From contig CAZETV010000002.1 of NCBI GenBank assembly GCA_964514965.1, positions 156,445-188,444 on the forward strand: DNA of 32,000 nucleotides, given 5' to 3'. Position 1 is the stretch's first letter. Every line of letters starts with the position of its first letter. This document shows, piece after piece, positions 5,656 through 23,097 of the stretch. This DNA comes from Candidatus Hadarchaeota archaeon. Its GTDB lineage: Archaea; Hadarchaeota; Hadarchaeia; Hadarchaeales; Hadarchaeaceae. The translations under genes and the position numbers were made by a program. The notes below the pieces were generated by a model. It saw only the letters and a program-made list of their open reading frames with translations, searched no databases and was not told where the DNA came from.

Positions 5656-6513
5656 TTATCCCTCGTTGAGCGTGTTCAGCAGCGCGAGCGTTGCTACAAG
5701 CGCTTCCTCAGTTCGAACGGTGGCGGCCCCTTGGCTCAGGATCGTATTGATTACGACGCCAAAGAGTTTTCCAGCATCGACGCCTTGGCGTTTGCAGATT
5801 TCGAAGAGGCCCGCATAAGAGCCCCCGAAAGCCACCGTCACGCTATGAGGTTTGCTACTCTCTATCGCTTGCATTACCCCATATAAATTTTGCCCGTGTC
5901 GTGAAGTCCCTATAACATAATCTGCTTTCAGGACTTTTAAAGCATCTGCGAGGGTTTTCGCCTGCATAACTTCATAGCCCCAATATTCGCTGACTTCGCT
6001 CCGTGATACCCGCTCGATTGCGCGTTTGCCCTCACCTAAACTTTCGCCGAGTCTAACCGTTACCCGTTGACCAACACTGAGTTTTTCACTTGTAAGACCA
6101 CGCTCACGTATCCCAAGTTCAAGTAGGCTCCCATTTTTATCCACATCTATAACAACGGCTTCACGATAATTGCCGACGGCAGTTTTTTCACCTACAAGCG
6201 GGTGGGAGGGTATACGCAGCGGCGGTAGCAAACCAGCGTAGCGAAGCTCTCGTGAATGTGGAAATATGAGTTTGCGCAGATATTGTGGCGTTTCCATATA
6301 CTGCAAAAGTGTTGAAATAATTCTAGCCTCAAAGGCTTGATTTTTAACATGGGGATCATCATCATTATAGATGCAAACCTTATCAACGCGGAAAATCGCC
6401 AGCGCACGCCCGATTAAACCAATCTTGAATGTTTTCTGCCGAAGGTCAGGTGCATCAGCAAAAAGCGAAGAAGGCAGCAGCACGAAAAAAGATTTGGATT
6501 TTCTTGACATCAT
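5656..6513 (-). CDS. Putative SPOUT-class RNA methyltransferase (DUF171 / COG2106-like)
   Basis: 285-286 aa. The family assignment is from my memory of the conserved archaeal protein found immediately upstream of rpl3 (motifs include YWGY.V and a C-terminal knot-like region). The start is the GTG at 6516 or the ATG at 6513, abutting the RtcB stop codon. Confidence 0.7.
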   Translation of the reverse strand: MMSRKSKSFFVLLPSSLFADAPDLRQKTFKIGLIGRALAIFRVDKVCIYNDDDPHVKNQAFEARIISTLLQYMETPQYLRKLIFPHSRELRYAGLLPPLRIPSHPLVGEKTAVGNYREAVVIDVDKNGSLLELGIRERGLTSEKLSVGQRVTVRLGESLGEGKRAIERVSRSEVSEYWGYEVMQAKTLADALKVLKADYVIGTSRHGQNLYGVMQAIESSKPHSVTVAFGGSYAGLFEICKRQGVDAGKLFGVVINTILSQGAATVRTEEALVATLALLNTLNEG

Positions 6514-6515
6514 CA

Positions 6516-7970
6516 CTAACCCTTTGCAACTCCCACAGGTTTCAAGCGTGCAACCATTCGAGCGATTCCCGCCTTATGGGACACCTCACAGACCTTATGG
6601 ATATCTTTATAACTCTTTGGCGCCTCCTCCGCAATTATCGAAATCTTAGCCGCTCGCACTATGATCCCCTTCGACTCGAGCTCTTTCTTCACATCTTCAC
6701 CCCAAAACTGCTTGAGTGCTGCTGTGCGGCTCATGTGGCGCCCTGCGCCGTGGGCGGTTGATGCAAACGTTTCCTGCATCGCCCGCTCGGTGCCCACGAG
6801 CACATAGGATGCAGTCCCCATGTCCCCCGGAATAAGCACTGGTTGCCCAACGCTACGATACAGTTCGGGCACACTGGGATGCCCGGGCGGAAACGCTCTT
6901 GTAGCACCTTTTCGATGTACACAAACTTTCTTGCGTCCCCCGTCAATCTGGTGTTCCTCAAATTTAGCGATGTTATGCGCGAGTCCATAAACGAGATGGA
7001 GACCCAATTTTTCTGCGTCCTGTCCAAAGACTTGCTCGAACGAGTCCCTCACCCAATGCGTGATCATTTGTCTATTTGTGAAACCATAATTTGCAGCGCA
7101 AGCCATCGCTGCAAGATATGACTGCCCCTCAGGCGAATTTATCGGTACATTGACGAGCTCTCTATCCGGGAGAGTTATGCCATATTTTCTAACGGTGCGT
7201 TCCATAGTTCTTAAATAGTCCGAGCAGACCTGATGACCCAGACCTCTCGACCCGGTGTGAATCGTGACCGTTACTTGCCCTTCATGGGTTATCCCAAAAG
7301 AGGAAGCAACTTCTTGGTCAAAAATTTTATCAACCACTTGAACCTCCAAGAAATGATTTCCACTTCCAAGGCTGCCAAGCTGGGGGAGACCGCGCTCTTT
7401 TGCACGCTGACTTACTCTACTCGCATCAGCACCAGCAAGACATCCTCCCTCTTCAAGCCTTTCCATGTCCTCTTTCCAGCCAAACCCATTCTCGACAGCC
7501 CACTTTACTCCGTTCTCAAGAACTTCATCAAGCTGGGAATAGGTAAGCTTGACCTTCCCCCTGCTGCCCAGCCCTGATGGCACGTTCCGGAAGAACGCAT
7601 CTACGAGTTCGCGGAGTTTCGGCTCGATGTCTTTTTTGTCAAAATTAGTCAGCAACAACCGCACTCCACAGTTGATGTCATATCCCACACCGCCTGGGCT
7701 AACGACGCCCGTCTCAGCGTCGGTAGCCGCAACCCCACCTATCGGAAATCCGTATCCTTGATGACCATCTGGGAGCGTTATCGAGTATTTGTAAATGCCC
7801 TGCAGAAAAGATACATTCGTGGCTTGCTCCAACGTTAGATCCCTGCACATCTCATTTAACAGCTCGGAGTCAGCGTATATCCTAACTGGAACTCGCATCC
7901 CGGACTTGCAGTCCTTAGGAATCTCCCACCGCACATCGTCGATTTTTTTAATCTTATCCATCCACACCAT
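6516..7970 (-). CDS. rtcB: RNA-splicing ligase RtcB (3'-phosphate/5'-OH ligase)
   Basis: 484-aa ORF with RtcB signatures: GYDINCGVR, GSGNHF.E, HTGSRG.G and a C-terminal HGAGR. Confidence 0.97.
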   Translation of the reverse strand: MVWMDKIKKIDDVRWEIPKDCKSGMRVPVRIYADSELLNEMCRDLTLEQATNVSFLQGIYKYSITLPDGHQGYGFPIGGVAATDAETGVVSPGGVGYDINCGVRLLLTNFDKKDIEPKLRELVDAFFRNVPSGLGSRGKVKLTYSQLDEVLENGVKWAVENGFGWKEDMERLEEGGCLAGADASRVSQRAKERGLPQLGSLGSGNHFLEVQVVDKIFDQEVASSFGITHEGQVTVTIHTGSRGLGHQVCSDYLRTMERTVRKYGITLPDRELVNVPINSPEGQSYLAAMACAANYGFTNRQMITHWVRDSFEQVFGQDAEKLGLHLVYGLAHNIAKFEEHQIDGGRKKVCVHRKGATRAFPPGHPSVPELYRSVGQPVLIPGDMGTASYVLVGTERAMQETFASTAHGAGRHMSRTAALKQFWGEDVKKELESKGIIVRAAKISIIAEEAPKSYKDIHKVCEVSHKAGIARMVARLKPVGVAKG

Positions 7971-19458: not shown

Positions 19459-19483
19459 ATTCTCCCCGCATACCGCCTCACAA

Positions 19484-19558
19484 CGGGCCCGGAGGGATTC
19501 GAACCCTCGACACCCGGCTTAAAAGGCCGGTGCGCTAGCCAGACTGCGCTACGGGCCC
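19484..19558 (-). tRNA. tRNA-Lys (anticodon UUU)
   Basis: Hand-folded 75-nt cloverleaf. Acceptor GGGCCCG/CGGGCCC, D arm GCGC-AGUCUGGCUA-GCGC, anticodon arm CCGGC-CUUUUAA-GCCGG, T arm GAGGG-UUCGAAU-CCCUC. Confidence 0.9.
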
Positions 19559-19576
19559 AAGAAAGCGGCTTGAACT

Positions 19577-19591
19577 CTCCTTTTATGCTTT
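19577..19591 (-). promoter_or_regulatory. Candidate TATA-like box for tRNA-Lys and the rpo operon
   Basis: The minus strand reads AAAGCATAAAAGGAG, centred about 27 nt upstream of the tRNA-Lys 5' end in an AT-rich spacer. Judged by eye only. Confidence 0.3.
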
Positions 19592-19707
19592 TCGCTATTT
19601 AAAATCATCGGAAGCACATTTAAAACTTTCTAAATGATGGTACTGTTAACTTAATGGGGCCCAACCACAACCTTTTACGATTTTTGATTTCTTGCCGTGG
19701 GCCTTCT

Positions 19708-20265
19708 CTAGACTAAATGTTCAATCAGTATTTTTATTCCGATACCAATTAAAATAAGACCTCCTATAATTTCAATTTTATTCCCAAAAAGGTGCCTAAA
19801 GCTATTCCCAGCAAAAACACCGAGAAACGACAACAGAAATGTTACAATCCCAACTACGATTATTGAGACCACGATAAGAATTTTTAAAAATGCAAAGCTT
19901 ACTCCAACAACCAAAGCGTCAATACTTGTAGCAACGGATAATACCAACAAAACATGAACATTCATTGGGTTGGTTTCTTTTTTGCTTGATTCTGTCTTAA
20001 TTGACTCATGAATCATTTTACAACCAACCAGACTCAGAAGTCCAAAAGCTATCCAATGGTCAAACCCTGTAATGAAATCTTTCAGGCCAGAACCAGCTAA
20101 CCACCCTATTAACAACATGACAGCCTGAAATAACCCAAAAAATATTGCGATTTTCAAGGCATTATTGATTCTCGGGTGTTTTATTGTTGTTCCGCTTGTG
20201 ATGGATACGGCAAAAGCATCCATTGCCAATCCAAACGCTACTACAAATATTGTGATCATATCCAT
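19708..20265 (-). CDS. mntP: Manganese efflux pump MntP (DUF204 family)
   Basis: 185-aa multi-pass membrane protein with the duplicated MntP motif (GLAMDAFAVS and SIDALVVG). Confidence 0.85.
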   Translation of the reverse strand: MDMITIFVVAFGLAMDAFAVSITSGTTIKHPRINNALKIAIFFGLFQAVMLLIGWLAGSGLKDFITGFDHWIAFGLLSLVGCKMIHESIKTESSKKETNPMNVHVLLVLSVATSIDALVVGVSFAFLKILIVVSIIVVGIVTFLLSFLGVFAGNSFRHLFGNKIEIIGGLILIGIGIKILIEHLV

Positions 20266-20360
20266 TCGATATCACTTTGTATGAAGTTTATTGCCTAACA
20301 TACCCCGCTTTTTACATTAAGGCATTGTGTCGGCCAAATAATTTAACAATGCATTAAATT

Positions 20361-20407
20361 GAGATGCCTTGGCCTAGATTTGAATCCGAAGCGCAGGCTC
20401 GACAGGC
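20361..20407 (-). repeat. Decayed copy of the 3' half of tRNA-Asp (att-like direct repeat)
   Basis: By hand alignment, 20361-20407 matches 21543-21589 at 41 of 47 positions. That target is the tRNA-Asp 3' end plus 4 flanking nt, running back into the 5' strand of the anticodon stem. The last 17 nt are identical. Orientation is the same, and the T-stem of the copy no longer pairs. Confidence 0.75.
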
Positions 20408-20515
20408 AAAATTATTCTAGTGGCGGGAAAAGTTCCCTAATAAGACATTAAGGAAAGTTTTGACGCTCCACAAAGCAAGTAGAGCACATAAATTCTTTGC
20501 GATATATTTCGAATT

Positions 20516-21370
20516 TTAACCTTCCCAAGCTGCCCACTTTTTAAAAATCTTTTCTTGGGATTCGACAGCCTCAGATAAATTGAATGGACTTTCGACGTTT
20601 CCAATTTCTCCTTTAACGGGGATGAAAATTTTGGTCTTAGGATTTTTGAAAGGGCAAGGCGGATAATGAGGGTGTTGCTTTCCCTTCCTCACCCCGGTTA
20701 CATCGCTTTCGGGACAAACACCTCTCATGAAACCTCGACATCCAATCAATCCTCTCGAGATCGGTAGTTGCTCAAGCAGGGCAAGATACATTTGCGCTGC
20801 TAAGCATCTGAACTCCGGAGACGTCCTGACACAAAGACGCAAGCCCAGCAAATTCAATAGAGACCGCAAATTTATCGTGACATGATAAATCCCAACTGCC
20901 TGAGAGAACGGCAGGGTGTACCTCGCCGACTCCCTCGGTACCCCCCGCTCTAGAAGTTTCTCATAAATTTCTATCCCCTGCGAAATGCTTTTCCAAAATT
21001 CCTGCCTTATCGTATCTCCCTCGTCTAACTTCAGTAAATCCCAAGGCAAAATTACTTCGTAAACCGGCCGCTCCTTTTCTATCCCCTCGTCTGCTTTGAT
21101 GTACCTAGTCGAATAACCGCTGTGGCTAGTCATCCTGTGCTCCAAAAACTCCGGGGCATTTCCTTTAGTCATTTTTAAATCGAATTTTATGATTATGTGT
21201 TCTAACGCTGAACTATAATCGTTTCTAACTATCATTTTAAAGATATCTTCGTCAAGAACTACCGGTGGAACCCCCGAGACTCTTGCTGAATAAGCCACTT
21301 CTTTCCAAGCGTTTTTTCCTCCCACTACCTCAAAATTCCAAATTTGAGGTTTCACCACTTCTATTTCCAT
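20516..21370 (-). CDS. thyX: ThyX-like flavin-dependent thymidylate synthase homologue, with a variant motif and a C-terminal extension
   Basis: 284-aa ORF that aligns by eye to Thermotoga ThyX (FEHI...; LEHRMTSHSGYSTRY against FRHRIASYNELSGRY; GVPRESARYTLP against GVPREVARIVLP). Confidence 0.8.
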   Translation of the reverse strand: MEIEVVKPQIWNFEVVGGKNAWKEVAYSARVSGVPPVVLDEDIFKMIVRNDYSSALEHIIIKFDLKMTKGNAPEFLEHRMTSHSGYSTRYIKADEGIEKERPVYEVILPWDLLKLDEGDTIRQEFWKSISQGIEIYEKLLERGVPRESARYTLPFSQAVGIYHVTINLRSLLNLLGLRLCVRTSPEFRCLAAQMYLALLEQLPISRGLIGCRGFMRGVCPESDVTGVRKGKQHPHYPPCPFKNPKTKIFIPVKGEIGNVESPFNLSEAVESQEKIFKKWAAWEG

Positions 21371-21546
21371 CTAAATCACCAACGAAACTGATGTCCCAAT
21401 ATTTGTGTATGTTATGATTCCACCACAATTTAATAGTTTTTCTACGAGGTATAAAAATTAATAATTGACAGTTTTGTGAGAGGCCCTCCCCAATCCGTGA
21501 GTACAGGCAAAAATGAAAACCAAAAAATTTGTGCCTTTTTGCGAGA

Positions 21547-21621
21547 CGCCCTGGCCGGGATTTGAACCCGAGGCGCAGGCTCGACAGGCCTGCATGCTAG
21601 ACCGGTCTACACCACCAGGGC
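21547..21621 (-). tRNA. tRNA-Asp (anticodon GUC)
   Basis: Hand-folded 75-nt cloverleaf. Acceptor GCCCUGG/CCAGGGC, anticodon arm CAGGC-CUGUCGA-GCCUG, T arm UCGGG-UUCAAAU-CCCGG, discriminator G. Confidence 0.9.
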
Positions 21622-21661
21622 CCAAACAAAAATGATTCGCGCCAATAATAAGTTTATCCAA

Positions 21662-21789
21662 GTGGACTGGCAGCGTCTCGGAGTTCCCCTTGGCTCTCGC
21701 ACAAGAGTACAGTCCGAATCGCTGGCAGGCTTAACTTCCGGGGTCTGACGAGACCGGGTGTTGCCCCACCGCTATGACCGCCAGTCCAG
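21662..21789 (-). rRNA. rrf: 5S ribosomal RNA (not linked to 16S/23S in this window)
   Basis: The minus strand reads ...GGCGGTCATAGCGGTGGGGCAACACCCGGTCTCGTCAGACCCCGGAAGTTAAGCCTGCCAGCG..., the conserved archaeal 5S core. Terminal helix I is TGGACTGGC/GCCAGTCCA. The ends are accurate to within a few nt. Confidence 0.9.
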
Positions 21790-21805
21790 TTAATCTTTGA
21801 GTTTG

Positions 21806-21816
21806 TAATTAAAAAG
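21806..21816 (-). promoter_or_regulatory. Candidate TATA box for 5S rRNA
   Basis: The minus strand reads CTTTTTAATTA, centred about 22-25 nt upstream of the inferred 5S 5' end, in the 37-nt spacer after tRNA-Tyr. Confidence 0.35.
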
Positions 21817-21826
21817 CTTGTTTAAG

Positions 21827-21954
21827 TGGTCCCGCGGGCCGGATTTTCAGCAGATTTGCCGCATTTGAACCGGCAACATGTCGGTTTCGGCTTGGGTCTT
21901 TGGCCCGCCTCTCGGCGAACAGCCGACCACTCTACCAAACTGAGTTACCGCGGG
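21827..21954 (-). tRNA. tRNA-Tyr (anticodon GUA), 128-nt gene with intervening sequences in the anticodon loop (31 nt) and the T-loop (20 nt); CCA encoded
   Basis: Removing 21886-21918 and 21844-21863 yields a 77-nt sequence: CCCGCGG-UA-ACUC-AGUUUGGUA-GAGU-G-GUCGG-CUGUAGA-CCGAC-AUGUU-GCCGG-UUCAAAU-CCGGC-CCGCGGG-A-CCA. It has the C1-G72 pair and A73 that are identity elements of archaeal tRNA-Tyr. It is nearly colinear with the M. jannaschii tRNA-Tyr sequence as I remember it. Confidence 0.85.
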
Positions 21955-22050
21955 GCCAAGTTAAAATTGGGATTTATGAACTCTTAAGGTTTCACCCAAG
22001 AAACTCGTGCAACCTGCGGATAGCACTCAACTTTTCCTTCCGATCAATCT

Positions 22051-23097
22051 TTACCTCTTGGACAGCACTTTGGAGGATTTCGATTGTTTTTTGATAGGTT
22101 CTCCTATCCACCGGATACGGAATTCCATCTTTTCCCCGTGTGCGAAAGAAAAGCGCGCCGGGTCTTCCCATGAAGGTGATTTACCGTAAATCAAGTCAGA
22201 AACAAGGGCAAGGGCCCGCACAGCTTTTGGTCCGATCCCTCCGATGGCGACCAGCTCCTCGTAGCTTTCGGGTTGGAACTCATAGGCTTTGAGAAGCGCC
22301 GTCATCGTCCGATCGGTGAACTCTGAAATAGTGTGCTGAGTTGGCATGATGAGGGTACGCACTTTGGGCGAGTGCATTAGGTATTCATCGAGCGATCGTT
22401 GTTCTGCTTCTCGAACATAACTCCCCAACCGCTTTGGATTGTCACGCACGAAGTCTAAACTAGATTTTCTCGCTTCATCGCTCTCGCGCGCAGTCATGTC
22501 GAGAACCACTTTCTCCCGGCGATCACCTACAATACCCGAGTGCGGCTCTTCAACGAAACTTTGGACACCCTCGGAAAGCCAGTGGTAGCGCCTAGCCAAC
22601 TGCTCATGCATTCCCTGCTGCACCACGGCCCAATCCCCATCTTCGCTGAGCACGAAAACATGATGATATAGCTGGTATCCGTCTTGCACACAAGCGTTGT
22701 CGACCTTTGCTGTCATCTTGCTCGCGTACTTGAGAAATTCAATTTTTCTGGAGGAGAGAGAAAAAACATCCGCGAGTTTTTGAATTTCGTTCGGCGTTCG
22801 CTTTGAAACCTTACCTTTCCCCCCGCAGACCGCGATGCCGAACTCTGTTTTTATCGCCTCCTTCAACGCACCACACACGGTAGTGGTCAATCCCGATGAA
22901 TGCCAGTCAAACCCGAGCGTGCATCCCAAAGCTTGAAAAAAGAAAGGATCGCTTATCCTTTTGAGTAATTCCTTTCTCCCGTATTCGTGCACGATTATCT
23001 CTGCTATTGCTCCACCCAAAAGCTTCATCCGACTGAACAACCAAGGTGGACATCTACCACCGTGCAAAGGCAGCTCAGCAACACCAACTCGTTTCAT
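22051..23097 (-). CDS. DUF763-family conserved hypothetical protein, with an apparent frameshift near the 3' end
   Basis: 348-aa ORF with the N-terminus ELPLHGGRCPPWLFSRM, typical of DUF763/COG1415 from memory. The reading frame appears to shift at a G4 run (22134-22137), and the other frame stays open to 21992. Confidence 0.75.
   Translation of the reverse strand: MKRVGVAELPLHGGRCPPWLFSRMKLLGGAIAEIIVHEYGRKELLKRISDPFFFQALGCTLGFDWHSSGLTTTVCGALKEAIKTEFGIAVCGGKGKVSKRTPNEIQKLADVFSLSSRKIEFLKYASKMTAKVDNACVQDGYQLYHHVFVLSEDGDWAVVQQGMHEQLARRYHWLSEGVQSFVEEPHSGIVGDRREKVVLDMTARESDEARKSSLDFVRDNPKRLGSYVREAEQRSLDEYLMHSPKVRTLIMPTQHTISEFTDRTMTALLKAYEFQPESYEELVAIGGIGPKAVRALALVSDLIYGKSPSWEDPARFSFAHGEKMEFRIRWIGEPIKKQSKSSKVLSKR

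Follow-up and report, generated by a model that had tools for sequence, protein, structure and literature searches.

The stretch of DNA examined here (32 kb, referred to below as the window) very probably carries, to judge from its sequence, a functional tRNA-Tyr(GUA) gene whose 128-nt precursor, read from the minus strand (21954-21827), is interrupted by three BHB introns. Removal of 19, 12 and 20 nt joins four exons into a tRNA of 77 nt. The original prediction had described a 128-nt tRNA-Tyr gene split by three introns, two of them non-canonical, with a 77-nt product including an encoded CCA. This description is borne out: the positions of the introns (35/36 and 59/60, both non-canonical, and one canonical) by BHB analysis, by orthologues lacking single introns and by counts of conserved pairs, the product by the presence of every feature quoted for it, and the tyrosine identity by ARAGORN, which assigns the 77-mer to tRNA-Tyr(gta) with a standard cloverleaf.

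The spliced tRNA has C1-G72, A73, an anticodon loop CUGUAGA that includes G37, a variable loop AUGUU, a T arm GCCGG-UUCAAAU-CCGGC and the encoded CCA. Archaeal tyrosine identity elements are A73, C1-G72 and G34 U35 A36 (PMC9976931), and this set is complete in the spliced product.

In minus-strand order the gene reads CCCGCGGUAACUCAGUUUGGUAGAGUGGUCGGCUGU / UCGCCGAGAGGCGGGCCAA / AG / ACCCAAGCCGAA / ACCGACAUGUUGCCGGUUCAAA / UGCGGCAAAUCUGCUGAAAA / UCCGGCCCGCGGGACCA, from exon 1 to exon 4. Exon 1 (21919..21954), in which orthologues differ in the D loop only, provides tRNA positions 1-35: the acceptor 5′ strand CCCGCGG, the D arm, the anticodon-stem 5′ strand and C32 U33 G34 U35. It is followed by intron A (21900..21918; 19 nt, UCGCCGAGAGGCGGGCCAA) at the non-canonical position 35/36, by exon 2 (21898..21899), a micro-exon of 2 nt consisting of A36 G37 and set by the borders of introns A and B, and by intron B (21886..21897; 12 nt, ACCCAAGCCGAA) at the canonical position 37/38. 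Placing intron B at 38/39 instead gives an identical product. Exon 3 (21864..21885) covers positions 38-59, that is A38, the anticodon-stem 3′ strand, the variable loop, the T-stem 5′ strand and U54-A59. Intron C (21844..21863; 20 nt, UGCGGCAAAUCUGCUGAAAA) interrupts the T-loop at 59/60, and exon 4 (21827..21843) supplies U60, the T-stem 3′ strand, the acceptor 3′ strand CCGCGGG, A73 and the CCA (21829-21827). All these features lie on the minus strand. The original prediction had 31 nt removed from the anticodon loop and 20 nt from the T-loop. The second of these stands as it was, with a strict motif at 59/60; the first is correct as a total but is made up of two introns of 19 and 12 nt, split by the 2-nt exon AG.

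Splice motifs were sought with a BHB geometry comprising three helices (outer h, H of 4 bp, inner h′) and 3-nt bulges placed on opposite strands, with predicted cuts after the second base of each bulge; the strict hBHBh′ criterion demanded 4 bp in H and at least 4 bp in both h and h′. Introns A and C both have strict motifs. That of intron A (raw nt 37-55) consists of H GGCU/GGCC, h GGUC/GACC (4 bp) and h′ CGCC/GGCG closed by a GAGA loop, with bulges GU/U and AA/A (the slash marks the cut), and it is part of the unconstrained MFE fold at 60 and 80 °C. That of intron C (raw nt 92-111) uses the 5-bp T stem as h, with H UUCA/UGAA, h′ GCGG/CUGC (4 bp) and bulges AA/U and AA/U. Intron B has a relaxed motif of the hBH, or bulge-helix-loop, type: h is the 5-bp anticodon stem, H (CUGU/GCCG) has three of four pairs with a U33.C mismatch, the bulges are AG/A and AA/A, and there is no h′. 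Once A and C are gone, the anticodon region reads GUCGG CUGUAG/ACCCAAGCCGAA/A CCGAC.

Two strict motifs are thus present within 128 nt. Among dinucleotide shuffles of these 128 nt (n=2000), 2.5% contained one such motif and 0.1% two or more; the background in the window is 23 per 64 kb (both strands). That both arose by chance, each at a place where excision restores the cloverleaf, is unlikely. A blind recursive search that covered every BHB-bounded excision of 10-60 nt at any position found removal of A, B and C to be the sole route from the 125-nt body to a tyrosine cloverleaf.

Orthologous loci were collected by scanning GTDB representative genomes with a degenerate 5′-exon pattern, which yielded 87 loci (designated by L and a number; the genome of the window is not one of the representatives). 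A scan of metagenomes for genes with an intron at 35/36 added only two examples; loci L088 and L089 are on metagenome contigs. The flanks of the window gene are 89-92% identical to Hadarchaeota/Hadesarchaea MAG contigs (L014, L087 and L012), and the neighbouring DUF763 gene is 90-91% identical to those of L014, L087, L012 and L061 and groups with them. The host is therefore a member of the Hadarchaeota (Hadesarchaea), and the link to Thermoproteales-type archaea made in the original prediction does not hold as a statement about the host.

Among these loci introns are present or absent as whole units, and the differences coincide exactly with the predicted borders. Intron B is the only intron in L087, in L017 and in seven more distant genomes; B and C occur together in L014, L033 and L047; and the complete A, B and C set is found in the window, L045, L088 and L089. 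Apart from one changed variable-loop base, the genes of L087 and L017 are what the window gene would be without A and C, and their single intron, B, has an identical sequence of 12 nt. L014 corresponds to the window gene minus A, its introns B and C being identical to those of the window. Intron A is thus missing from L014, L087 and L017 at its exact borders, and orthologues without it read CUGUAG/ACCC at this point. G37 is kept in 22 of 22 Hadarchaeota genes.

An additional intron, D (18-31 nt), was observed at 43/44, where the anticodon stem meets the variable loop. It accompanies B in L012, L061, L080 and L063, and both B and C in L051, L055, L069 and L085; this last combination is a second three-intron layout, found in Candidatus Hadarchaeum genomes. 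The motif of intron D is relaxed and HBh′-like, its H being formed by bases 38-41. A short duplication, GGGACCAC-TTGGACCAC, was also seen after the 3′ end of tRNA-Tyr in L089 (395-420) and is absent in the other orthologues.

The orthologue series bears directly on how the anticodon loop is divided. One could read the gene as having only two introns, the T-loop intron and a single 31-nt intron at 35/36 (UCGCC...AGCCG), which would leave a loop CUGUAAA with A37; this is what ARAGORN itself annotates once the T-loop intron has been removed (tRNA-Tyr with i(37,31)). Such a segment is not bounded by any BHB motif with at least three of four pairs in H and at least 3 pairs in h, and the blind search did not yield it. 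Moreover, orthologues without A show A36 G37 as exon, G37 is kept throughout the Hadarchaeota genes as noted above, and the 19-nt segment is an exact unit of presence or absence between the window and L014. We consider the single 31-nt intron highly improbable. A related reading would make the gene a tRNA-Asn(GUU), again with the T-loop intron and one 31-nt intron, in this case at or near the canonical position and leaving a loop CUGUUCA or CUGUUAA. It has in its favour that U and C come after G34 U35 in the gene and that ARAGORN types both artificial assemblies as tRNA-Asn, a mis-typing which the original prediction had foreseen. These intron borders, however, carry no BHB motif, the canonical variant would place C at position 37, C1-G72 together with A73 is the archaeal tyrosine set (PMC9976931), and the orthologues are unambiguously tRNA-Tyr. 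An asparagine gene is consequently the least credible of the readings considered and can practically be dismissed. The division into introns of 19, 12 and 20 nt is the one retained below.

Conservation of pairing agrees with this division. In the four genes with introns A, B and C, all 144 of 144 pair cells in the acceptor, D, BHB-A and BHB-C helices are standard, compared with 34-49% when partners are slid. Compensatory changes among these genes affect the T stem as well as helix h′ of intron C, and each pair of the intron A motif is retained in L045, L088 and L089. Covariation support for intron A is nonetheless thin: it amounts to one GC-to-GU change in four sequences, most BHB pairs being invariant. 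The introns at 59/60 can be compared in ten Hadarchaeota tRNA-Tyr genes, where H has four of four pairs except in L033 (three of four) and one h′ pair shows a compensatory change from CG to UA. Across the A, B and C genes, 15 of the 16 cells in helix H of intron B form a pair, the sole miss being the U33.C of the window. The exon side of this helix is fixed, its intron side is GCCG, ACGG, AUAG or AUGG, and four of four pairs form in L045, L088, L089, L031, L086 and L040 with differing intron sides.

In 37 °C MFE folds of the precursor and of the intermediate spliced at A and C, a competing helix, UCGGCU/AGCCGA, replaces the anticodon stem. It was considered as an alternative splice motif and rejected: its bulge has 2 nt, and at a distance of 4 bp the cut would land in the anticodon. 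Nor is this register conserved: L031, L086 and L040 lack it and form all four pairs in the canonical register.

The gene escapes standard annotation tools, as originally predicted. ARAGORN reported nothing at the locus in default or intron modes (the latter run on 21780-22010), and there was no Rfam match at the gathering score. In E-value mode Rfam gave a partial tRNA match only (22.3 bits against a cut-off of 29), which leaves out 34 nt of the anticodon loop and pairs the T arm wrongly; the same mode detected no other disrupted tRNA in the whole window. The L087 orthologue, which lacks A and C, serves as a natural control for the 77-mer. It scores 56.3 bits on the Rfam tRNA model (model positions 1-71), and ARAGORN calls both L087 and L017, which have intron B only, tRNA-Tyr. 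Orthologues with two and three introns are likewise missed by ARAGORN and Rfam. Hadarchaeota genomes annotated with these two tools alone would therefore seem to lack tRNA-Tyr.

Upstream of the gene is a TATA-box-like element, CCTTAAGAG (21981..21989, minus strand), at -35 to -27 relative to the mature 5′ end. Of 24 genes compared, 17 have (C/T)TTAAGA(G/A) or CTTAATAA at this position, irrespective of intron content; these are the window gene together with L014, L087, L012, L061, L017, L033, L047, L088, L089, L080, L063, L051, L055, L069 and L085, plus L045 with TTTATTTT. The element may act as a promoter, and the gene as a whole is predicted to be expressed. A run of five T residues, GCTTTTTAATT (21811..21815, minus strand), 12 nt past the CCA, is a likely transcription stop; a T-run also follows tRNA-Tyr in most of the close orthologues. 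Directly downstream on the same strand are a 5S rRNA gene (21665..21785; Rfam 86.8 bits) and then tRNA-Asp (21621-21547), and this order of tRNA-Tyr, 5S rRNA and tRNA-Asp is conserved in L014, L087 and L088. The other flank is occupied by the DUF763 gene (22051-23097, minus strand).

The wider RNA gene cluster (19483-21785, minus strand) continues from tRNA-Tyr, 5S rRNA and tRNA-Asp to ThyX and MntP and then to tRNA-Lys, directly upstream of rpoB. The segment with tRNA-Lys and rpoB is also kept in L087, L012 and L088.

Failure of the standard tools to recognise the gene, in a view limited to 32 kb, could also be expected of a decaying pseudogene, that is a former tRNA-Tyr disabled by insertions while another gene supplies tRNA-Tyr. 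The exons, however, show no damaging change relative to orthologues and all three insertions retain EndA-type motifs. The A, B and C layout recurs in L045, L088 and L089 with compensatory changes, and promoter-like elements, terminator elements and gene order are all conserved. Three introns are, in addition, found in 8 of the 22 Hadarchaeota tRNA-Tyr genes examined. A pseudogene is thus very unlikely, and a functional three-intron gene is the reading followed here.

In archaea, BHB bulges are the cleavage sites of EndA, and the exon ends are ligated by RtcB. Applied to the present gene, EndA would cut behind the second of the three nucleotides in each bulge and the RtcB encoded in the window would ligate the exon ends. 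Introns A and C form perfect motifs in the primary transcript, and either might be removed first, independently of the other. Intron B would have to wait. The BHB of intron A takes up tRNA bases 26-33, the future anticodon-stem 5′ strand, and pairs them both to bases of the intron and to G37 A38 C C, so that neither the anticodon stem nor the intron B motif can form properly while A is present. Excision of A and ligation would join CUGU to AG and allow the anticodon stem to form, presenting intron B in a bulge-helix-loop from which it could be removed. Since A36 G37 alone separate the two introns, ligation after removal of A should precede cleavage at B, as the dinucleotide exon would otherwise be lost. 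The motifs and cut sites are read from the sequence; this order and the enzymes involved are deduced from the known archaeal pathway. Archaeal tRNAs in which a second BHB becomes available only when one intron has been excised are known (PMC8450103); a literature search on ordered removal of first and second introns in archaeal pre-tRNA returned nothing relevant.

The relaxed motif of intron B and the HBh′-like intron at 43/44 in relatives imply an EndA of broad specificity. The one Hadesarchaea EndA published is of the alpha4 type and has an L3 loop, a combination linked to a greater extent of tRNA gene disruption (PMC5829648). No EndA gene was found in the 32-kb window. The window does contain an RtcB RNA ligase gene (6516..7970, minus strand; Pfam RtcB, 596 bits over the full profile), whose product, by analogy with the known archaeal pathway, may join the exons of the tRNA-Tyr precursor.

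The RtcB gene is 14 kb from the three-intron tRNA, next to a gene for a putative RNA methyltransferase (5656-6516) and genes for ribosomal proteins L3, L4, L2, S19, L22 and S3. A permissive scan showed three strict-BHB-like motifs inside its open reading frame (7836-7807, 7722-7695 and 7340-7298, minus strand). These are probably due to chance because the reading frame is uninterrupted and aligns with the entire Pfam profile.

The most interesting detail of the locus is how patchily intron A is distributed among near relatives. The DUF763 genes with which that of the window groups (L014, L087, L012 and L061) are 90-97% identical among themselves, and none of these genomes has intron A. At 90-97% identity in this gene, the intron sets met with are thus B, B and C, B and D, or A, B and C. 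The DUF763 gene of L088, on the other hand, is 74% identical to that of the window and groups with those of L017, L033 and L047, all likewise without intron A. Intron A itself is nevertheless identical at 18 of 19 positions between the window (21900-21918) and L088 (614-632), whereas introns B and C differ far more. A further copy of intron A, in L089 (308-326), was also compared with that of the window.

Near-identity of intron A despite 74% identity of the neighbouring gene, together with its absence from the nearest relatives, would suggest that the intron has moved laterally or inserted repeatedly. The alternatives are several precise losses of intron A or its lateral spread. The idea that the Hadarchaeota tRNA-Tyr locus records ongoing movement of BHB introns, with a mobile intron of 19 nt spreading laterally or inserting more than once, is a tentative one and, from the sequences compared, rather doubtful. 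If it were true, a mobile intron A would have inserted 2 nt from an existing intron, making a dinucleotide exon with a forced order of splicing, and this in a lineage whose published EndA is of the alpha4 type; the locus would then provide a natural series for how archaeal tRNA introns arise. No donor copy of introns A, B or C was found in the window or in any of the 89 loci. The only hit to intron A outside tRNA-Tyr genes with E <0.1 was a match of 17 nt in L004 (611-627), which was set aside as chance, being in coding-looking DNA with no tRNA signal.

Several elements of this picture are already documented: three-intron archaeal tRNAs, introns at 59/60, ordered removal of close introns and tRNA gene disruption in Hadesarchaea have all been published. 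Archaeal tRNAs can carry up to three BHB introns, which is the published maximum per tRNA gene, at non-canonical positions including 59/60, with rapid gain and mainly in Thermoproteales (PMC4090602; PMC4033280; PMC4390854). Thermoproteales tRNAs with three introns include tRNA-Pro(UGG) of Pyrobaculum islandicum, with introns at 25/26, 37/38 and 56/57, and tRNA-Glu(UUC) of P. calidifontis. These share with the window gene the combination of one canonical and two non-canonical BHB introns, one of which is in the T-loop region. The window gene differs in belonging to Hadarchaeota, in its tyrosine identity, in its set of positions (35/36, 37/38 and 59/60) and in having two introns only 2 nt apart. 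The published Hadesarchaea EndA is alpha4 with an L3 loop, unlike the (alpha-beta)2 enzyme with its crenarchaeal loop (PMC5829648). Closely spaced archaeal introns that need ordered removal are mentioned in the description of tRNAscan-SE 2.0 (PMC8450103), and introns A and B match this arrangement.

Extra disruption of tRNA genes in Hadesarchaea was reported by Kaneta et al. 2018 (PMC5829648), as proportions for one genome; the main text has no description of this tRNA-Tyr locus or of its intron polymorphism series. In the literature searched, which did not extend to the primary Thermoproteales papers, no published example of a 2-nt exon between introns was found, nor any description of this tyrosine locus, of the pair of introns at 35/36 and 37/38 separated by a 2-nt exon, or of the polymorphism series. 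In Caldiarchaeum, near-identical genomes differ in intron number at one tRNA locus, which was read as recent gain (PMC3293823). That case involves a mobile element that carries a recombinase as well as a tRNA fragment, whereas no such element was seen beside the window tRNA-Tyr.

Three-intron tRNAs are usually associated with Thermoproteales; this locus adds a Euryarchaeota-related lineage to their range, and the clean series of intron presence and absence at one orthologous locus bears on both gain and loss of archaeal tRNA introns. It leaves the known splicing mechanism unchanged. The tRNA-Tyr gene of Methanocaldococcus jannaschii is uninterrupted, and the mature tRNA has C1-G72, A73, an anticodon loop CUGUAGA and a T-loop UUCAAAU. 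The mature molecules of the two organisms are thus very alike, whereas their genes differ in that only that of the window is interrupted.

The tRNA-Tyr genes of Aigarchaeota/Nitrososphaerota relatives (loci within L002-L083, from Caldarchaeum, Geocrenenecus, Wolframiiraptor and Nitrososphaeria) have a nearly identical 5′ exon, and carry long anticodon-loop introns of about 40-55 nt which start directly after CUGUAG.
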